Source of the DNA: a virus
Taxonomy: Duplodnaviria; Heunggongvirae; Uroviricota; Caudoviricetes
Strand: one strand, 5' to 3'
Virus record (IMG/VR): IMGVR_UViG_2700989169_000006
Length of the DNA: 8,988 bases
The notes under the pieces are model-generated. The model was not told where the DNA came from. It saw nothing but the letters and a program-made list of their open reading frames with translations, and ran no database searches. Below are positions 43-8,007 of this stretch, piece by piece. The translations under genes and the position numbers were made by a program. How positions within the stretch are numbered: the stretch's first letter is position 1; the number at the start of each line of letters is the position of its first letter.

Positions 43-366
43 TTGCCAGTACACCTCAAACTACTCATTGCCAGATGGGAACTGACCGCAGAACAGGCTG
101 TCGCACAGCAGTTAAAAAATCAGGTGTCAAAAGGAAATCTTATCGATACCGGATTTTGTATTTTTGCCCTTAGTAAGCTGGCGATGGCTTTATCCAGTAC
201 GCTTGACTCCATTCCTTTGTCCATGCAACGACAGTTCCCGGATTTAACGCCGCGTCATATTGATCATCTGAAAATCCTTATTGCTAAGGGAGCGAATCAG
301 TGCGCGCGTGCGGGGGATAAATTACCGGATTTACTCGATGAATATATCAGAACAACAACTGAGTAA
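43..366 (+). CDS. nu1: Terminase small subunit (Nu1-like), C-terminal large-subunit-interaction region only; reading frame is closed upstream by stops at 13-15 and 31-33, so the N-terminal DNA-binding part is absent in this frame
   Basis: The translation (...FCIFALSKLAMALSSTLDSIPLSMQRQFPDLTPRHIDHLK...LPDLLDEYI) parallels the lambda Nu1 C-terminus as I recall it (...FCTFVLSRIAGEIASILDGLPLSVQRRFPELENRHVDFLK...IPGLLSEYI). The stop TAA at 364-366 overlaps the start of the downstream A homolog, as in lambda. The ORF-track start at 43 is a TTG, not an ATG. Confidence 0.7.
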   Translation: MPVHLKLLIARWELTAEQAVAQQLKNQVSKGNLIDTGFCIFALSKLAMALSSTLDSIPLSMQRQFPDLTPRHIDHLKILIAKGANQCARAGDKLPDLLDEYIRTTTE

Positions 367-2305
367 TATGATGGTGGCAGTCACTATCGCACTGCAGCCA
401 CTGGTCAGGGTATTGCCGGTGACGGCTGTAGAATGGGCCGATCAAAATTATTACCTGCCTAAAGAATCGTCATACGGTGAGGGGGAATGGAAAACGCTGC
501 AGTTTCAGGTCGCCATCATGAACTGCATGGGCAATGACGAGATTCGTACAGTTAACCTGATTAAATCTGCCCGTGTTGGTTATACAAAAATGGTGCTTGG
601 TGTGATCGGGTATTTTATTGAGCACAAATCCCGCAACACTCTTCTTTTTCAGCCGACGGACTCAGCTGCTGAAGATTTTATGAAGTCTCACGTGGAAGCA
701 ACAATTCGTGATGTTCCTTGCCTGAAAAAACTTTCTCCCTGGCTGGGCCGGAAACACCGGGATAATACGCTCACACTGAAGCGTTTTTCCTCTGGTGTGG
801 GGTTCTGGTGTTTGGGTGGTGCTGCTGCCAAAAACTACCGTGAAAAATCTGTCGATGTGGTCTGCTATGACGAACTCTCCTCGTTTGAACCGGATGTGGA
901 AAAAGAAGGTTCGCCAACACTGCTTGGCGATAAACGTATTGAAGGTTCGGTATGGCCAAAATCCATACGCGGTTCAACGCCAAAAATTAAAGGCTCCTGT
1001 CAGATTGAAAAAGCTGCGAATGAATCTGCGCATTTCATGCGGTTTTATGTCCCTTGCCCTCATTGCGGGGAGGAGCAGTATCTGAAGTTTGGCGATGATG
1101 CGACGTCGTTTGGCCTGAAATGGGAGAAGGGTAAACCGGAAACGGTGTATTACCTGTGTGAACATAATGGCTGCGTGATCCGTCAGTCTGAACTTGATCA
1201 GACCGGGGGGCGCTGGATTTGTGACAATACCGGGATGTGGACGTGTGACGGTCTGACGTTTTTCAGTGCTTCGGGTAATGAAATTCCGCCGCCGCGCTCC
1301 ATCACTTTCCATATATGGACGGCGTACAGTCCGTTCACCACCAGGGTACAGATAGTCTGTGACTGGCTGGATGCACTGAAAGATCCCAACGGCGTGAAAA
1401 CTTTTGTGAACACCACGCTGGGCGAGACCTGGGAAGAGGCCGTGGGCGAAAAACTCGATCACCAGGTACTGATGGATAAGGTTGTGCCTTACACGGCAAC
1501 GGTGCCTGTCCGGGTGGTTTATCTGACGGCGGGCATTGACTCGCAGCGAAACCGTTTTGAGATGTATGTCTGGGGGTGGGCTCCGGGAGAGGAAGCCTTT
1601 CTGGTGGATAAAATCATCATCATGGGACGTCCTGATGAGGAAGAGACGCTGTTACGTGTGGATGCGGCGATCAATAAAAAATACCGCCATGCAGACGGTA
1701 CCGAAATGACCATTTCCCGTGTCTGCTGGGATATCGGGGGGATCGATGGCGAAATCGTGTATCAGAGGTCAAAAAAACACGGTATTTTCCGGGTACTGCC
1801 GGTAAAAGGTGCCTCTGTCTATGGCAAGCCGGTGATCACCATGCCGAAAACCCGCAATCAGCGGGGTGTGTATCTGTGTGAGGTGGGGACGGATACCGCA
1901 AAAGAAATTCTCTATGCCCGAATGAAGGCCGATCCCACCCCTGTGAATGAGGCCACATCGTATGCCATCCGCTTTCCTGATAATCCGGAGATTTTTTCGC
2001 AGACAGAGGCACAACAACTGGTGGCGGAGGAACTGGTGGAAAAGTGGGAAAAAGGAAAGATGCGTCTGTTGTGGGATAACAAAAAGCGGCGTAACGAAGC
2101 GCTGGACTGCCTGGTGTATGCCTATGCGGCATTACGTGTGTCCGTGCAACGCTGGCAACTTGATCTGGCTGGGGGNNNNNNNNNNNNNNNNNNNNNNNNN
2201 NNNNNNNNNNNNNNNNNNNNNNNNNNNNNNNNNNNNNNNNNNNNNNNNNNNNNNCTGCACAACCGACCCTTGAAGAACTGGCAGCGAAGCTGTCCGGAGG
2301 AGTGA
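338..2305 (+). CDS. A: Terminase large subunit (lambda gpA-like; ATPase/endonuclease)
   Basis: The long ORF 281..2305 contains an internal Met at 338 beginning MNISEQQLS..., matching the recalled lambda gpA N-terminus MNISNSQVN.... Many colinear motifs follow: TAVEWAD.NYYLPKES, KNYREKSVDV, DKRIEGSVWPKSIRGSTPK, CPHCGEEQYLKFGD, FVNTTLGETWE, YLTAGIDSQ, KKRRNEALDC. The C-terminus is interrupted by an N-run at 2176-2254, so the end and frame after the gap are uncertain. Confidence 0.93.
   Translation: MNISEQQLSNMMVAVTIALQPLVRVLPVTAVEWADQNYYLPKESSYGEGEWKTLQFQVAIMNCMGNDEIRTVNLIKSARVGYTKMVLGVIGYFIEHKSRNTLLFQPTDSAAEDFMKSHVEATIRDVPCLKKLSPWLGRKHRDNTLTLKRFSSGVGFWCLGGAAAKNYREKSVDVVCYDELSSFEPDVEKEGSPTLLGDKRIEGSVWPKSIRGSTPKIKGSCQIEKAANESAHFMRFYVPCPHCGEEQYLKFGDDATSFGLKWEKGKPETVYYLCEHNGCVIRQSELDQTGGRWICDNTGMWTCDGLTFFSASGNEIPPPRSITFHIWTAYSPFTTRVQIVCDWLDALKDPNGVKTFVNTTLGETWEEAVGEKLDHQVLMDKVVPYTATVPVRVVYLTAGIDSQRNRFEMYVWGWAPGEEAFLVDKIIIMGRPDEEETLLRVDAAINKKYRHADGTEMTISRVCWDIGGIDGEIVYQRSKKHGIFRVLPVKGASVYGKPVITMPKTRNQRGVYLCEVGTDTAKEILYARMKADPTPVNEATSYAIRFPDNPEIFSQTEAQQLVAEELVEKWEKGKMRLLWDNKKRRNEALDCLVYAYAALRVSVQRWQLDLAGXXXXXXXXXXXXXXXXXXXXXXXXXXXLHNRPLKNWQRSCPEE
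2176..2254. other. Run of 79 N (assembly gap or masked sequence) inside the 3' end of the terminase large subunit gene
   Basis: Literal n characters in the sequence. Confidence 1.
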
Positions 2306-2509
2306 ATGGTTACAGTCGCTGAACTGCAGGCGCTGCGTCAGGCGCGCCTTGATTTATTAACCGGTAAACGGGTTGTGTCGGTACAGAAAGACGGTCGCAG
2401 GATCGAATATACGGCAGCGTCCCTGAATGAGCTTAACCGTGCGATCAACGATGCGGAGTCGGTTCTGGGTACGACCCGACGCCGCCGACCGCTGGGAGTG
2501 AGGTTATGA
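2306..2509 (+). CDS. W: Head-tail joining / head completion protein (lambda gpW-like)
   Basis: The 67-aa product contains LLTGKRVVSVQKDGRRIEYTAASLNEL, matching recalled lambda gpW ([27 protein letters not shown]). Its ATG at 2306 directly follows the A stop (TGAATG), and its TGA at 2507-2509 overlaps the B start. Confidence 0.9.
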   Translation: MVTVAELQALRQARLDLLTGKRVVSVQKDGRRIEYTAASLNELNRAINDAESVLGTTRRRRPLGVRL

Positions 2510-3561
2510 AACGAACGCCTGTCCTGATTGATGTGAACGGCGTTCCGCTTCGTGAGAGTCTCAGCTACAACGGAGGCGGCGCAGGATTTGGCGGGCAAAT
2601 GGCAGAGTGGTTACCACCGGCGCAGAGTGCCGATGCGGCCCTGTTGCCTGCATTGCGTCTGGGGAATGCCCGGGCAGATGATCTGGTGCGCAATAACGGT
2701 ATCGCGGCTAATGCGGTGGCCCTGCATAAGGATCATATCGTCGGGCACATGTTTCTTATCAGCTACCGTCTGAACTGGCGTTGGCTGGGGATGCGGGAGA
2801 CCACGGCAAAAAGTTTTGTCGGGGAGGTGGAAGCAGCCTGGTCGGAATACGCAGAAGGAATGTTTGGCGAGATCGACGTGGAAGGGAAACGCACGTTTAC
2901 GGAATTTATCCGTGAAGGGGTGGGCGTGCATGCCTTTAACGGCGAAATCTTTGTGCAGCCGGTCTGGGATACGGAAACCACGCAGTTATTCCGTACGCGT
3001 TTTAAAGCCGTGAGTCCGAAACGGGTGGACACGCCAGGACACGGTATGGGGAACCACTTTCTGCGGGCCGGGGTTGAGGTCGATCGGTATGGGCGGGCGA
3101 TTGCGTACCATATCTGTGAGGATGATTTTCCGTTCTCTGGTGCCGGACGCTGGGAGCGGATCCCGCGTGAGCTTCCCACCGGGCGTCCGGCCATGCTGCA
3201 TATTTTTGAGCCGGTGGAGGACGGGCAGACCCGTGGGGCTAATCAGTTTTACAGCGTAATGGAGCGGATGAAGATGCTGGACTCCCTGCAGGCCACGCAG
3301 CTTCAGTCGGCCATTGTGAAGGCGATGTATGCAGCCACAATCGAAAGTGAACTTGATACCGAAAAGGCATTTGAATATATCGCGGGGGCACCGCAAGGTC
3401 AGCAGGATAATCCGCTTATTAATATTCTGGAGAAGTTCACCCGCTGGTATGACACGAATAACGTGACGCTGGGCGGTGTTAAAATTCCGCACCTTTTTTC
3501 CTGGCGATGCGCTGAACCTGCAGACAGCGCAGGATTCAGACAATGGATTTTCGGCGCTTGA
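2506..3561 (+). CDS. B: Portal protein (lambda gpB-like), N-terminal segment in frame 1; homology to gpB ends near 3497 where the frame breaks
   Basis: The translation shows GNARADDLVRNNG, HAFNGEIFVQ, SPKR, IPRELP, FEPVEDGQTRGANQFYSVMERMKMLDSLQATQLQSAIVKAMYAATIESELDT, matching recalled lambda gpB. After ...GGVKIPHLF the frame-1 translation (SWRCAEPADSAGFRQWIFGA) no longer resembles gpB. Confidence 0.85.
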   Translation: MKRTPVLIDVNGVPLRESLSYNGGGAGFGGQMAEWLPPAQSADAALLPALRLGNARADDLVRNNGIAANAVALHKDHIVGHMFLISYRLNWRWLGMRETTAKSFVGEVEAAWSEYAEGMFGEIDVEGKRTFTEFIREGVGVHAFNGEIFVQPVWDTETTQLFRTRFKAVSPKRVDTPGHGMGNHFLRAGVEVDRYGRAIAYHICEDDFPFSGAGRWERIPRELPTGRPAMLHIFEPVEDGQTRGANQFYSVMERMKMLDSLQATQLQSAIVKAMYAATIESELDTEKAFEYIAGAPQGQQDNPLINILEKFTRWYDTNNVTLGGVKIPHLFSWRCAEPADSAGFRQWIFGA

Positions 3562-4159
3562 ACAGGCGCTGCTGCGGTATATTGCAGCCGGTCTTGGCGT
3601 TTCCTACGAACAGTTGTCCCGTGATTACTCGAAGGTCAGTTACTCAAGTGCCCGCGCCTCCGCCAATGAGTCGTGGCGCTATTTTATGGGGCGGCGAAAA
3701 TTTATTGCGGCCCGGCTGGCCACGCAGATGTTTTCCTGCTGGCTGGGAGGGGNNNNNNNNNNNNNNNNNNNNNNNNNNNNNNNNNNNNNNNNNNNNNNNN
3801 NNNNNNNNNNNNNNNNNNNNNNNNNNNNNNNNNNNNNNNNNNNNNNNNNNNNNNNNNNNNNNNNGGCGCGTTCAGCCTGGTCACGGGCAGAGTGGATTAG
3901 CTCCGGAAGAATGGCCATTGACGGGCTCAAGGAGGTCCAGGAATCGGTGATGCGCATTGAGGCCGGACTGAGCACGTATGAGAAAGAACTGGCACTGATG
4001 GGCGAAGATTATCAGGACATTTTCCGCCAGCAGGTCAGGGAATCCGCAGAGCGCGAAAAAGCCGGACTCTCACGTCCGGTGTGGATAGCCCAGGCGTATC
4101 AGCAGCAGATAGCGGAGAGTCGCAGGCCGGAAGAGGAGACAACATCACGTGAGACGTAA
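3476..4159 (+). CDS. B: Portal protein (lambda gpB-like), C-terminal segment in frame 2; its real continuation begins at about 3497, not at the GTG at 3476
   Basis: The translation PGDALNLQTAQDSDNGFSALEQALLRYIAAGLGVSYEQLSRDYSKVSYSSARASANESWRYFMGRRKF...SGRMAIDGLKEVQESVMRIEAGLSTYEKE matches the recalled lambda gpB C-terminal half. It is interrupted by an N-run at 3753-3864. Confidence 0.85.
   Translation: MLKFRTFFPGDALNLQTAQDSDNGFSALEQALLRYIAAGLGVSYEQLSRDYSKVSYSSARASANESWRYFMGRRKFIAARLATQMFSCWLGGXXXXXXXXXXXXXXXXXXXXXXXXXXXXXXXXXXXXXXARSAWSRAEWISSGRMAIDGLKEVQESVMRIEAGLSTYEKELALMGEDYQDIFRQQVRESAEREKAGLSRPVWIAQAYQQQIAESRRPEEETTSRET
3753..3864. other. Run of 112 N (assembly gap or masked sequence) inside the portal gene
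   Basis: Literal n characters in the sequence. Confidence 1.
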
Positions 4160-5687
4160 TCTTTCACATATTATCGCTGCGGCATTCAATGAGCCGCTGC
4201 TTCTGGAGCCCGCCTATGCGCGGGTTTTCTTTTGCGCGCTCGGGCGTGAGATGGGCGCAGCAAGCCTTTCGGTACCGCAACAGCAGGTACAGCTTGACGC
4301 TCCCGGGATGCTGGCTGAAACGGACGAGTACATGGCCGGAGGCAAACGACCTGCCCGTGTTTACCGGGTGGTGAACGGTATTGCTGTACTGCCGGTGACC
4401 GGCACGCTGGTACACCGGCTGGGTGGCATGCGGCCATTTTCCGGAATGACTGGCTATGACGGCATTGTCGCCTGTCTTCAGCAGGCAATGGCGGACACTC
4501 AGGTACGGGGCGTACTGCTGGACATTGACAGTTCTGGCGGGCAGGCCACCGGCGCGTTTGACTGCGCTGACATGATTTACCGTCTCCGGCAGCTGAAGCC
4601 TGTCTGGGCACTGTGCAATGACACGGCCTGTTCAGCCGCCATGTTACTGGCATCGGCCTGCTCCCGACGGCTGGTTACCCAGACATCCCGTATCGGCTCC
4701 ATTGGGGTGATGATGGGCCATGTCAGCTATGCCGGTCATCTGGCACAGGCCGGTGTGGATATCACGCTGATTTACGCCGGATCGCACAAGGTGGATGGCA
4801 ATCAGTTTGAATCCCTGCCAGCAAAGGTTCGCCAGGACATGCAGCAGCGCATTGATGCGGCGCGCCGGATGTTTGCTGAAAAAGTGGCGATGTATACCGG
4901 TTTATCTGTGGATGCGGTTATGGGAACAGAGGCCGCCGTTTTTGAAGGTCAGTCCGGTATTGAGGCCGAACTGGCGGATGAATTAATCAATGCGTCGGAC
5001 GCCATCAGCGTGATGGCTGCGACGCTGAACACACACGATACAGGAGGCACTATGCCGCAATTAACTGCAACGGAGGCTGCCGCGCAGGAGAACCAGCGAG
5101 TGATGGGGATCCTGACGTGTCAGGAAGCGAAAGGACGTGAACAACTGGCCACGATGCTGGCAGGGCAACAGGGTATGAGCGTTGAGCAGGCCCGGGCGAT
5201 TCTGGCCGTGGCGGCACCGCAACAATCTGGTGTATCTGCGCAGAGTGAAGCCGATCGCATTATGGCATGTGAAGAGGCGAAAGGACGTGAACAACTGGCG
5301 GCAACGCTGGCGGCGATGCCGGAGATGACGGTGGAAAAAGCCCGTCCGATTCTGGCTGCTTCACCGCAGGCGAATGCCGGACCCTCACTTCGTGATCAGA
5401 TTATGGCCCTGGATGAGGCAAAAGGGGCAGAGGCGCAGGCTGAAAAACTGGCGGCCTGTCCGGGGATGACCGTGGAGAATGCCCGGGCTGTACTGGCGGC
5501 AGCCTCANNNNNNNNNNNNNNNNNNNNNNNNNNNNNNNNNNNNNNNNNNNNNNNNNNNNNNNNNNNNNNNNNNNNNNNNNNNNNNNNNNNNNNNNNNNNN
5601 NNNNNNNNNNNNNNNNNNNNNNNNNNNNNNNNNNNNNNNNNNNNNNNNNNNNNNNNNNNNNNNNNNNNNNNNNTGATGCGGACGTGA
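4149..5687 (+). CDS. C: Prohead protease / minor capsid protein C (lambda gpC-like, S49/ClpP-type peptidase) with the scaffold (Nu3-like) region in its C-terminal part; 3' end uncertain because of the N-run at 5508-5673
   Basis: The N-terminal region ...AAFNEPLLLEPAYARVFFCAL..., NGIAVLPVTGTLV, GAFDCADMI, KPVWAL, SRRLVTQTSRIGSIGVMM, ITLIYAGSHKVDGN and AARRMFAEKVAMYTGLSV match recalled lambda gpC. The start is a GTG at 4149, overlapping the portal end by 11 nt, with GAGGAG upstream at about 4132-4137. Confidence 0.88.
   Translation: MRRNLSHIIAAAFNEPLLLEPAYARVFFCALGREMGAASLSVPQQQVQLDAPGMLAETDEYMAGGKRPARVYRVVNGIAVLPVTGTLVHRLGGMRPFSGMTGYDGIVACLQQAMADTQVRGVLLDIDSSGGQATGAFDCADMIYRLRQLKPVWALCNDTACSAAMLLASACSRRLVTQTSRIGSIGVMMGHVSYAGHLAQAGVDITLIYAGSHKVDGNQFESLPAKVRQDMQQRIDAARRMFAEKVAMYTGLSVDAVMGTEAAVFEGQSGIEAELADELINASDAISVMAATLNTHDTGGTMPQLTATEAAAQENQRVMGILTCQEAKGREQLATMLAGQQGMSVEQARAILAVAAPQQSGVSAQSEADRIMACEEAKGREQLAATLAAMPEMTVEKARPILAASPQANAGPSLRDQIMALDEAKGAEAQAEKLAACPGMTVENARAVLAAASXXXXXXXXXXXXXXXXXXXXXXXXXXXXXXXXXXXXXXXXXXXXXXXXXXXXXXXXMRT
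5052..5687 (+). CDS. nu3: Scaffolding protein (Nu3-like) from an in-frame internal start within C; 3' end uncertain (gap)
   Basis: An in-frame ATG at 5052 is preceded by a strong AGGAGG at 5042-5047. The downstream sequence (ENQRVMGILTCQEAKGREQLA...PGMTVE.AR.ILAAA.PQ) parallels the recalled lambda Nu3 region (ENSRIMGILNCEEAHGREEQARVLAETPGMTVKTARRILAAAPQ). Lambda is known to express Nu3 from an internal in-frame start in C. Confidence 0.5.
   Translation: MPQLTATEAAAQENQRVMGILTCQEAKGREQLATMLAGQQGMSVEQARAILAVAAPQQSGVSAQSEADRIMACEEAKGREQLAATLAAMPEMTVEKARPILAASPQANAGPSLRDQIMALDEAKGAEAQAEKLAACPGMTVENARAVLAAASXXXXXXXXXXXXXXXXXXXXXXXXXXXXXXXXXXXXXXXXXXXXXXXXXXXXXXXXMRT
5097..5507 (+). repeat. Tandem in-frame repeat array (at least 3 copies, about 141-159 bp each) encoding the Nu3/C C-terminal motif; the array runs into the N-gap
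   Basis: The 23-mer gcgaaaggacgtgaacaactggc occurs identically at 5127-5149 and 5277-5299, exactly 150 bp apart. The protein-level units are RVMGILTCQEAKGREQLATMLAGQQGMSVEQARAILAVAAPQQ / RIMACEEAKGREQLAATLAAMPEMTVEKARPILAASPQ / IMALDEAKGAEAQAEKLAACPGMTVENARAVLAAAS. Confidence 0.75.
5508..5673. other. Run of 166 N (assembly gap or masked sequence) at the 3' end of C/Nu3, directly after the tandem repeat array
   Basis: Literal n characters in the sequence. Confidence 1.
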
Positions 5688-5746
5688 AAATGCTCATGGC
5701 CATGCCATGAAGTCAGTGCTGACCATCAATATGAGGTTTTTACAAT

Positions 5747-6094
5747 ATGGTAACGAAAACCATCACTGAACAGCGTGCGGAAGTACGTATTTTTGCCGGT
5801 AATGATCCGGCCCATACCGCCACAGGCTGCAGCGGGATTTCCTCGGCAACACCGGCTCTGACGCCCCTGATGCTGGATGAGGATACCGGGAAACTGGTGG
5901 TCTGGGACGGACAGAAGGCAGGCCATGTGGTTGGCATACTGGTACTGCCGCTTGAAGGTACAGAGACGGTGCTGACGTATTACAAGTCGGGGACCTTTGC
6001 GACGGAGGCCATCCACTGGCCTGAGAGAGTGGATACACACAAAAAGGCGAATGCCTTTGCCGGCAGTGCCCTGAGTCACGCAGCGCTGCCGTAA
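5747..6094 (+). CDS. D: Head decoration protein (lambda gpD-like)
   Basis: The 115-aa product contains NDPAHTAT, TPLMLD, KLVVWDG, YYKSGTF, WPE and AFAG, matching recalled lambda gpD. GAGG lies about 10 nt upstream of the ATG. Confidence 0.92.
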   Translation: MVTKTITEQRAEVRIFAGNDPAHTATGCSGISSATPALTPLMLDEDTGKLVVWDGQKAGHVVGILVLPLEGTETVLTYYKSGTFATEAIHWPERVDTHKKANAFAGSALSHAALP

Positions 6095-6151: not shown

Positions 6152-7180
6152 ATGGGATTGTTTACGACCCGCCAGTTACTCGGTTATACCGAACAAAAAG
6201 TTAAATTTCGTGCGCTGTTTCTGGAGCTGTTTTTCCGCCGTACGGTGAATTTCCATACCGAAGAGGTAATGCTGGACAAAATTACCGGAAAAACGCCGGT
6301 GGCGGCCTATGTCTCCCCGGTTGTTGAAGGAAAGGTGTTGCGTCACCGTGGCGGTGAAACTCGTGTACTGCGCCCGGGCTACGTTAAGCCGAAACACGAA
6401 TTTAATTACCAGCAGGCGGTGGAGCGTCTTCCCGGTGAAGATCCGGCCCAGCTGAACGGCCCGGCTTACCGTCGCCTGCGTATCATCACCGATAACCTCA
6501 AACAGGAAGAGCACGCCATTGTCCAGGTGGAAGAGATGCAGGCGGTGAATGCCGTGCTGTATGGCAAATACACCATGGAAGGAGAGCAGTTTGAAACTGT
6601 TGAGGTCGATTTTGGCCGGTCGGTGGGAAATAACATTACGCAGGCAGGAGGGACGGAGTGGAGCGCTCAGGACCGCGATACCTTTGATCCGACGCATGAT
6701 CTGGATGCGTACTGTGATTTTGCTTCCGGCACCATCAATATTGCCATTATGGATGGTAAGGTCTGGCGTCTGCTGAATGGCTTTAAGCTGTTCCGCGAAA
6801 AACTGGATACCCGTCGTGGCTCAAATTCACAGCTGGAAACGGCAGTGAAAGACCTGGGGGCGGTGGTGTCCTTCAAAGGGTATTATGGTGATCTGGCAAT
6901 CGTGGTGGCAAAAACGTCCTATGTGGCAGAGGACGGTACCGAAAAACGTTATCTGCCGGACGGCACACTGGTACTGGGAAATACGGCCGCAGAGGGTATT
7001 CGTTGCTACGGTGCCATTCAGGATGCGCAGGCATTGTCTGAAGGCGTGGTGGCGTCTTCCCGTTATCCGAAACACTGGCTGACCGTGGGTGATCCGGCGC
7101 GTGAATTCACCATGACGCAGTCCGCGCCGCTGATGGTGCTGCCGGATCCGGATGAGTTTGTGGTGGTGCAGGTGAAATAA
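6152..7180 (+). CDS. E: Major capsid protein (lambda gpE-like)
   Basis: The 342-aa product is colinear with recalled lambda gpE: PGYVKPKHE, AIVQVEEMQAVNAVLYGKYTMEGE, NNITQAGGTEWS, EKLDTRRGSNSQLETAVKDLG, LPDGTLVLGNT, GDPAREFTMTQSAPLMVLPDPDEFVVVQ. AAAGGA lies upstream of the ATG. Confidence 0.95.
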   Translation: MGLFTTRQLLGYTEQKVKFRALFLELFFRRTVNFHTEEVMLDKITGKTPVAAYVSPVVEGKVLRHRGGETRVLRPGYVKPKHEFNYQQAVERLPGEDPAQLNGPAYRRLRIITDNLKQEEHAIVQVEEMQAVNAVLYGKYTMEGEQFETVEVDFGRSVGNNITQAGGTEWSAQDRDTFDPTHDLDAYCDFASGTINIAIMDGKVWRLLNGFKLFREKLDTRRGSNSQLETAVKDLGAVVSFKGYYGDLAIVVAKTSYVAEDGTEKRYLPDGTLVLGNTAAEGIRCYGAIQDAQALSEGVVASSRYPKHWLTVGDPAREFTMTQSAPLMVLPDPDEFVVVQVK

Positions 7181-7231: not shown

Positions 7232-7618
7232 ATGGCTACGAAAGAAGAAAACCTGAAACGTCTTTGTGAGCTGGCTGAGAGGCTGGGGCGTGAACCGGAT
7301 GTCTCCGGTAGTGCGGCAGATATTGCGCAGCGAGTGGCGGAACTGGAGGAAGAGCTTGGAGATGCGGGGGAGGTCGCAGAGCCGGATACGTACTCACCAT
7401 CGAAAGATGATCCGACCGCGCATAAAGGCGAGTCAGTTCCTGAACAGCCAGGCATTGTTACCGGAGACGAAACGGGGCAGGTTACGGTGGTGGCACTGGC
7501 GACACTGCATACAAAATGTAATGGTTCAGTGATATTTGTTTCACCGGGAACGTCGTTTCGTGTTTCTGCTGAGGTGGCTGCCAGCATGGCGGCAGGTGGT
7601 CTGGCAAAAAGGCAGTAA
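7232..7618 (+). CDS. FI: DNA packaging protein FI (lambda gpFI-like)
   Basis: The C-terminal region VTVVALATLHT...VSPGTSFRVSAEVAASMAAGGLAKRQ matches recalled lambda gpFI (VTVVALVKLHT...VLPGTAFRVSAGVAAEMTERGLARMQ), and the N-terminal region has the same acidic/alanine-rich character. The start is chosen at ATG 7232, preceded by AGGAG at 7222-7226; the ORF-track start at 7199 lies inside the terminator region and is less likely. Confidence 0.85.
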   Translation: MATKEENLKRLCELAERLGREPDVSGSAADIAQRVAELEEELGDAGEVAEPDTYSPSKDDPTAHKGESVPEQPGIVTGDETGQVTVVALATLHTKCNGSVIFVSPGTSFRVSAEVAASMAAGGLAKRQ

Positions 7619-7629
7619 CAGGAGATGTC

Positions 7630-8007
7630 GTGGACGGTTTCGATAATCTGTTTGATGCTGCGCTTGCCGGTGTCAATGAAGTCATTCTCCGTGATATGGG
7701 GATCAGCGCCGTCATTACGTCCGGAGAACTTGAGGGGACACACCTGACAGGGGTTTTTGATGATCCCGAAAGTATTTCTTTTGTTGCCGGGGGGATCCGG
7801 CTTGAGGATTCCTCACCGTGCCTGTTTGTGAAAACGGCAGATATATCGCAGTTACGCCGTCAGGATACGTTAACTATCGGGGATGATTCTTTCTTTGTGG
7901 ATCGTATTACTCCGGATGACGGGGGATGCTGTTATATCCGGTTAAGGCGGGGCAGTCCTGCCCCACAGAATAATGCCAGAATGAGGCGATATGATGAAGG
8001 GACTTGA
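7630..8007 (+). CDS. FII: Head-tail connector / head completion protein FII (lambda gpFII-like)
   Basis: DGFDNLFDAA, GVFDDPESISF, SSPCLFVKT, QLRRQDTLTIGDDSFFVDRITPDDGG match recalled lambda gpFII (ADFDNLFDAA, GVFDDPENISY, SSPSLFVRT, QLRRGDTLTIGEENFWVDRVSPDDGG). The start is a GTG at 7630 with GGAG at 7621-7624. Confidence 0.88.
   Translation: MDGFDNLFDAALAGVNEVILRDMGISAVITSGELEGTHLTGVFDDPESISFVAGGIRLEDSSPCLFVKTADISQLRRQDTLTIGDDSFFVDRITPDDGGCCYIRLRRGSPAPQNNARMRRYDEGT

Follow-up and report, generated by a model that had tools for sequence, protein, structure and literature searches.

An 8,988-nt stretch of DNA from the IMG/VR record IMGVR_UViG_2700989169_000006 of a tailed virus, referred to here as the window, contains a gene for an S49 peptidase-type prohead protease with a nested scaffolding protein, and this gene carries three consecutive in-frame copies of a unit of 41-45 amino acids. 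Taken as a whole, the copies are with high probability best explained as the Tri-box array of a phage-21-type lambdoid prophage, for which we infer a role in docking during head assembly. The triplication itself is already known and has stood in the phage 21 annotation since the early 1990s; the original description of the phage 21 head genes is reportedly that of Smith and Feiss (Gene, 1993). A megablast search with positions 4900-5507 against phage records retrieved 19 Escherichia phages at ~90-92% identity, including phage 21 (M81255), and gene 6 of M81255 is annotated with three repeat regions, "Tri1 box", "Tri box" and "Tri3 box", with the remark "function unknown; putative". After alignment these boxes correspond to window positions 5119-5222 (Tri1), 5259-5369 (Tri) and 5400-5513 (Tri3), and the three units of the window, which are co-linear with them, are the same Tri1, Tri and Tri3 boxes.

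The units lie within positions 5088-5507 on the plus strand, in the translation from a GTG codon at 4149. As delimited by a unit hidden Markov model (HMM) and a repeat search, unit 1 (Tri1 box; ENQRVMGILTCQEAKGREQLATMLAGQQGMSVEQARAILAVAAPQ) covers 5088-5222 (amino acids 314-358), unit 2 (Tri box; EADRIMACEEAKGREQLAATLAAMPEMTVEKARPILAASPQ) 5247-5369 (amino acids 367-407) and unit 3 (Tri3 box; LRDQIMALDEAKGAEAQAEKLAACPGMTVENARAVLAAAS) 5388-5504 (amino acids 414-452). If unit 3 is taken to end as annotated in phage 21, its last two codons lie in an adjoining run of N, so that at most two codons are clipped. The start-to-start spacing of the units is 150 nt and then 141 nt. Pairwise local protein alignments of the units scored 82-106 compared to shuffle means of 22-24 (z = 13-19, exceeding all of 2,000 shuffles), confirming the tandem in-frame units proposed in an initial annotation of the window. 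The same annotation had correctly observed that the first two copies share an identical 23-mer spaced 150 bp apart and that the third copy is more diverged. The 23-mer GCGAAAGGACGTGAACAACTGGC is present in unit 1 at 5127..5149, where it encodes EAKGREQLA, and in unit 2 at 5277..5299 (both on the plus strand), and the chance expectation for such a repeat in 8,988 nt is ~6e-7 ((8988^2/2)/4^23). Unit 3 shares 51-58% amino acid identity with the other two units, compared to 63% between units 1 and 2. DNA identity amounts to 73% for units 1 and 2 in a 94-nt alignment and to 72-78% in the 36-nt core. Tandem Repeats Finder reported 0 repeats in the whole window, the DNA of the copies having diverged too far. 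The array represents residues ~13-152 of the ~200-amino acid internal scaffold product, rather than its C-terminal part, to which it had been assigned initially.

The three-unit form is widespread, and the complete E. coli genomes contain 2,923 matching places. A match over at least 80% of the array was found in 1,865 of 5,426 complete E. coli genomes (about one third), and an evenly spread sample of the matching records showed an uninterrupted three-unit span in 58 of 60 closed records, the other two being one member of a class of 482-amino acid variants and one truncated copy. All 19 phage-21-like phage records, including phage 21, ev017, 4A7, D2, 1W, 3W, Lambda_4C10 and the PhiR series, contain the full 600-nt three-unit scaffold region. 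The Salmonella phage Gifsy-1 matches all 199 residues with 54% identity over a 576-nt span, which we take to hold three units, judging by the span without the unit HMM. The best 80 IMG/VR loci have a near-identical three-unit form and add no diversity. The three-unit array is an ordinary family feature and among the commonest prophage features in E. coli, which is essentially the outcome in related phages and prophages that the initial annotation had named as speaking against its own interpretation.

Unit 3 is directly adjoined by a run of 166 N at 5508-5673, which is one of three N-runs in the window together with those at 2176-2254 (79 nt) and 3753-3864 (112 nt). The initial annotation had drawn the repeat feature over 5097-5673, considered the true copy number unknown, and suggested that the gap resulted from a repeat-induced assembly collapse. 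Unit 3 does abut the gap, but the range to 5673 takes in the whole N-run, which is repeat-free. The gaps were compared with the closed relatives L002 (O121), L004 (FDAARGOS_943), L005 and phage 21, of which L004 is 98.5% identical over the window and L002 is 98.5% identical over the array. These relatives hold 23, 52 and 110 nt of unique sequence at the three N-runs, and the 110 nt under the third gap encode a non-repeated tail, G-R/K-AEPVSASTTAMFEHFMANHSPAAVQGGV.QTSADG. The N-runs exceed the sequence of the relatives by +56, +60 and +56 nt, and this constant excess looks like a systematic scaffolder bias, independent of repeats. An interpretation of the N-runs as length-preserving masks was rejected, since it needs three independent insertions of ~56-60 nt versus all relatives, one of them frameshifting a gene. 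Judged from the aligned relatives, the N-run at 5508..5673 appears to be a routine scaffold gap standing in for ~110 nt of unique tail sequence, and the gene to have three units.

It is highly improbable that the array instead runs into the gap with four or more units, the N-run being the product of repeat-induced assembly collapse. The location of unit 3 next to the N-run, the 56-nt excess of the latter over the homologous sequence and the presence of four-unit proteins of 551 amino acids in databases would all fit such an extension, but every closed relative has the unique 110 nt at this place, and a fourth unit needs +141 to +150 nt, not the +56 nt that recur at gaps in unique sequence (+56, +60), one of which, with the same +56 excess, lies in the terminase gene. 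A collapse would replace near-identical copies, whereas the DNA identity between the units is only ~73% and their longest shared word is 23 nt, which we infer to be too short for short-read collapse; the 551-amino acid entries themselves look like artefacts. The initial annotation had also considered that the repeats might be mis-assembled duplicates of a gene that truly has a single unit, as in lambda, and the assembly is indeed a low-quality draft, in which three N-runs occur and the portal gene is frameshifted at a homopolymer. This explanation is scarcely credible, as the units differ by at least 27% at the DNA level and so cannot be copies of one read-set, and the same three units are found in phage 21 (sequenced ~1992), in isolated phages and in ~1,865 complete genomes; the closed relatives rule it out.

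The reconstructed protease/scaffold gene (gp5, lambda-C-like S49 prohead protease-scaffold) extends over 4149..5710 on the plus strand, with the GTG start at 4149 and the N-run inside, and comprises 1506 nt or 501 amino acids, the same length as in phage 21. Its true stop is TGA at 5708-5710, in a frame fixed by alignment to the closed E. coli O121 and phage 21 sequences. The last 11 codons and the stop (DADVKMLMAMP-stop) are located at 5674..5710 on the plus strand, out of frame with 4149 if the length of the N-run is taken literally. The open reading frame (ORF) 4149..5687 was rejected as spurious: 166 and 110 differ by a number that is not a multiple of three, and the end of this ORF merely reflects how long the N-run is. 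Both ORFs that were called across N-runs, 281..2305 and 4149..5687, carry false frames or ends.

A Pfam search identified Peptidase_S49 (PF01343) at amino acids 147-292 (E = 2.6e-33; 115.6 bits versus a cutoff of 24.9), and Ser162 and Lys214 align with Ser166 and Lys218 of lambda gpC, the catalytic Ser of the S49 domain being present. The sequence matches of the S49 protein in the PDB were to SppA only. A putative internal in-frame start of the scaffold product (gp6, the Nu3 analogue) is found at 5042..5054 on the plus strand, with the Shine-Dalgarno sequence AGGAGG at 5042-5047, four nucleotides, and then ATG at 5052-5054 (Met302). This candidate ATG and its ribosome-binding site align with those annotated, likewise as putative, for gene 6 of phage 21 (M81255), and the product predicted from it would have ~200 amino acids and share the C-terminus of the protease. 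The initial placement of the repeats in a nested C/Nu3-type protease/scaffold gene is supported.

Phage 21 genes 5 and 6 (head-tail preconnector gp5/gp6; M81255, OL657228) show the same gene order and the same nesting of protease and scaffold, with three units at the same positions, ~90% DNA identity over the array and likewise 501 amino acids. The phage 21 and window sequences are distinguished by point differences only, and the linker between units 1 and 2 reads QQSGVSAQ in the window versus QQPVASTQ in phage 21. Gene 5 corresponds to lambda C, and gene 6, the in-frame internal product, to Nu3. In contrast to the three units of the window, lambda C (439 amino acids) has one unit only, at amino acids 357-400, as the initial annotation had stated. 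The S49 domain of lambda C is homologous (60% identity in the protease part, including the catalytic Ser), and lambda Nu3 is also nested in frame as a scaffold of ~200 amino acids with the same unit motif; a low-complexity segment lies ahead of its single unit. Nu3 has 201 amino acids and starts at Met239, whereas the 21-type gp6 has 200 amino acids and starts at Met302, 63 codons downstream of the lambda start, and the window has Ile at the position of Met239. Thus, the two scaffolds are equal in length despite having one and three units, because the internal start has moved. Lambda Nu3 interacts with E, B, C and itself, and the scaffold is degraded by the protease, both being absent from mature heads (PMC3224144). 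A literature search on the Tri box, the phage 21 head genes, the gpNu3 structure and the combination of S49 with scaffold returned nothing specific, the lambda interaction map being the sole useful item.

The window units share 78% (unit 1), 71% (unit 2) and 65% (unit 3) identity with the Salmonella-type units in the same positions, whereas paralogous units are only 51-63% identical. Each unit is closest to the unit in the same position in Salmonella-type and other relatives, so the triplication predates these lineages and is old and fixed in the phage-21-type lineage. A profile of the unit detected 1,580 proteins among 1.84 billion cluster representatives at E ≤ 0.001. Among the best 140 of these 1,580 proteins, a ranking which favours multi-copy proteins, 126 have one unit, nine have two and five have three. 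The single copy is thus the norm, and three units are characteristic of the enterobacterial phage-21-type clade. Outside this clade, independent duplications are few (P0246, P0220/P0316 and P0261 being examples). Proteins with the unit typically consist of an S49 domain, a linker, the unit and then a tail of ~39-50 amino acids; the other form is a short, stand-alone scaffold that combines the same unit with the same tail. The PHROG labels are in agreement, namely head maturation protease (phrog_53), head scaffolding protein (phrog_8399) and capsid assembly protein (phrog_8940). A Pfam search found no family that covers the units, and a PDB sequence search found no relative of the unit, with lambda C matching only SppA (residues 81-298). 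The unit represents a module that is common in phage S49 protease/scaffold proteins but has no name and no solved structure.

The homologues vary in repeat number, for which the initial annotation had proposed to look, and include forms with one, two, partial and three units. Their length classes were obtained from a full-length protein search, with clusters counted among the 120 matches listed; a first search with the 152-amino acid array had returned short or partial proteins only, hence the full-length query. Proteins of 439 amino acids have one unit (lambda), those of 451/452 amino acids have two (at least 25 clusters among the matches listed), those of 472 and 482 amino acids have a partly deleted unit 2, and those of 501 amino acids have three (phage 21 and the reconstructed window protein), followed by 551 amino acids with four units (two entries) and 657 amino acids with 5.5 units (one entry). 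The exact 482-amino acid protein P0122 occurs in 3,592 indexed blocks of the assembly collection, and the junction of this class is present in at least 56 closed genomes.

In the two-unit proteins, units 1 and 2 have been joined in register at no fewer than five different points, namely (with a slash at the crossover) CQEA/NGRE, EAKGREQLA/ATLAAM, EQAR/PILAA, ILAA/SPQ, and AAAPQ/ADAG and AAAP/LADAG. The EAKGREQLA/ATLAAM crossover falls inside the 23-mer, as seen in the DNA of the 451-amino acid variant L087. One two-unit junction was found in the closed genome NZ_CP195488.1. A 44-nt query for the 23-mer junction matched no closed genome, and an 86-nt junction query could not tell two-unit from three-unit genomes, as BLAST joined the pieces. 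The two-unit genes lie in head-tail operons whose called genes all have full-length products, and one 452-amino acid allele is located in a visibly degraded prophage. The 23-mer identity is lineage-specific: phage 21 (L001) does not have the exact 23-mer, and the identity between units 1 and 2 was created in the window/O121 lineage by four substitutions, two in unit 1 and two in unit 2. All four are homogenising, which suggests short gene-conversion tracts between the units. Recurrent unequal recombination in the array is real but rare, with the three-unit allele dominating. The idea of a recombination hotspot has some support from the in-register crossover points, including the one in the flagged 23-mer, and from the partly deleted unit 2 of rare natural variants.

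The four-unit proteins P0094 and P0095 (551 amino acids) were rejected as evidence of expansion, being probable assembly artefacts. Both entries come from one assembly series (L086 3001-4656, GCA_900537015.1; L091 1274-2929, GCA_900536945.1), and their genes contain a perfect 151-nt repeat with a period of 150, N at two positions 150 nt apart and a junction, GMT/EMT, that is out of register. The 657-amino acid gene, from the closed E. coli genome CP007136.1 (L094 2501-4474), contains a 468-nt tandem duplication with 460 nt identical, which spans the end of the protease domain to the middle of unit 3 and is either recent or artefactual. Its junction looks non-homologous, with a putative shared GAGGC at the breakpoint as read from the homologous sequence of the window. 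In P0176 (721 amino acids) and P0179/P0180 (577 amino acids), unrelated sequence replaces the scaffold tail directly after unit 3. From its appearance we would guess that the fused sequence is tail-fibre-like, and we suspect that these proteins represent deletions in decaying prophages.

The AlphaFold2 model of the whole scaffold shows three helices per unit and low-confidence linkers, with a predicted local distance difference test (pLDDT) of 60 and a predicted template modelling score (pTM) of 0.24, and was excluded from the fold search because this pLDDT was too low. For a single unit, modelled with a 22-sequence unit alignment, the best model reached a pLDDT of 84.5 with helices at residues 2-10, 18-25 and 32-41. 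A Foldseek search of the unit model against BFVD (predicted viral structures) retrieved, at template modelling scores (TM) of 0.85-0.91, only the same module in phage S49 proteases, from Salmonella phage 37, Synechococcus S-ESS1 and a Siphoviridae contig. The invariant positions of the unit are core hydrophobic residues and an E-A-x-G-x-E loop. Each unit is predicted to fold alone as a small three-helix bundle, and flexible linkers rich in Pro, Gln and Ala are predicted to connect the units like beads on a string.

Scaffolds of the P22 gp8 and phi29 gp7 type, which bind the coat through a C-terminal helix-turn-helix, likewise have a small helical module on a scaffold that is flexible and for the most part disordered, a likeness that is a functional analogy only, with contact to the capsid interior presumed. 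The unit, in contrast, is a predicted three-helix bundle that is internal, repeated and shared with the protease. PDB searches produced no sequence or fold match to the P22 gp8 and phi29 gp7 scaffolds, and a comparison with the P22-type helix-turn-helix (P22 gp8 residues ~264-303) revealed no similarity. Tandem three-helix-bundle binding modules (staphylococcal protein A domains, GA modules, UBA/CUE and RuvA domain III) are among the closest systems named.

The array lies in the part of the S49 protease gene that would also be translated from the internal start as scaffold. Each unit may represent an independent docking module, and the units could hold the protease as well as the scaffold against the inner face of the procapsid during assembly, where they would dock to the major capsid protein, the portal or both. 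With its three flexibly linked units, the phage 21 scaffold would be multivalent, and the conserved, exposed E-A-x-G-x-E loop would be the best candidate for the contact surface. The short identical DNA stretches between units might allow occasional unequal recombination, deleting or hybridising units. That the units are docking modules conferring multivalency on the phage 21 scaffold is a tentative proposal, to which we would give somewhat less than even chances.

Several points weigh against this interpretation. GenBank marks the Tri boxes as of unknown function, and we found no established function of the unit, which has neither a Pfam family nor a solved structure. Only one of the five single-unit models is confident, the other four having pLDDT values of 58-64, so the structure prediction suggested in the initial annotation gave a three-helix bundle in its best model and little certainty in the rest. 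Foldseek of the unit model against the PDB returned nothing (E > 3) and retrieved no scaffolding-protein fold. The sequence under the gap in this strain is taken from relatives, and the two-unit and partly deleted variants are known as sequences, not as viable phage. Finally, capsid binding might in fact reside in the conserved tail of ~40-50 amino acids after the last unit, which is unrepeated; the units would then serve as spacers or for oligomerisation.

Such a division of labour, in which the unrepeated tail binds and the units provide length or spacing, scaffold self-association or protease-substrate sites that ensure degradation, is the main rival and appears rather unlikely, although it has several features in its favour. 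In other phages (HK97 gp4, phi29 gp7), the signal that targets the protease or scaffold to the capsid is a peptide at its C-terminus, which counts for the tail as the binding element. The unit alone is multiplied, while the order of unit and ~39-50-amino acid tail is conserved across the family, and the near-equal sizes of lambda Nu3 (201 amino acids) and gp6 (200 amino acids) with one and three units hint that length matters; self-association of Nu3 has been reported (PMC3224144). However, no other segment is conserved as well as the unit, either between lambda Nu3 and gp6 or across distant phages (a cyanophage among them), and the unit has an invariant exposed E-A-x-G-x-E loop; such conservation would be unusual in a mere spacer. 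The two-unit variants, with a scaffold of ~150 amino acids, are found in operons with full-length called genes, which argues against strict length selection. We return to the units as docking modules in a broader form, which is more speculative than the multivalency proposal: the unit may be an uncharacterised docking domain whose copy number (one in lambda, three in phage 21, two or ~2.5 in rare variants) tunes valency, while the scaffold length of ~200 amino acids, kept in lambda and phage 21 through the moved internal start, would reflect selection on scaffold size.

According to the ORF map, Pfam and the annotated closed relatives, the window is a lambdoid head operon of phage-21 type, with the genes in the order terminase large subunit, W (2306-2509), portal (2506-4159), S49 peptidase, a lambda-D-type decoration gene (HDPD, 5747-6094) and a lambda-E-type major capsid gene (Phage_cap_E, 6152-7180). 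The closed relatives have the same annotated gene order, in which the S49 gene sits between the portal and the decoration/capsid genes. The portal ORF of the window is split into 2506..3561 and 3476..4159 by one extra T at 3494-3499 (T6 versus T5 in the closed relatives L004 and L005), representing either a homopolymer sequencing error or a real pseudogene. The identity of L005 falls from 97.6% to 87.9% downstream of ~7534, placing a mosaic boundary at window ~7360-7534, and L004 has an ISEc60 insertion near window position 7959, where the window is continuous. The closest array match (98.5%), L002 (E. coli O121 CP119441, 1-8700), is a rearranged prophage remnant with IS1A copies on its flanks, a truncated portal gene and a second partial capsid gene set.

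As a discovery, the array carries little weight, since the triplication is known and very common. The analysis clears it of the suspicion of assembly collapse and corrects the gene model to 501 amino acids with the stop at 5708-5710, and the survey reveals a widespread unnamed module of S49 protease/scaffold proteins that is normally present in single copy. The natural one-, two-, partial- and three-unit alleles form a ready series for studies of scaffold valency and length in lambda-type procapsid assembly.

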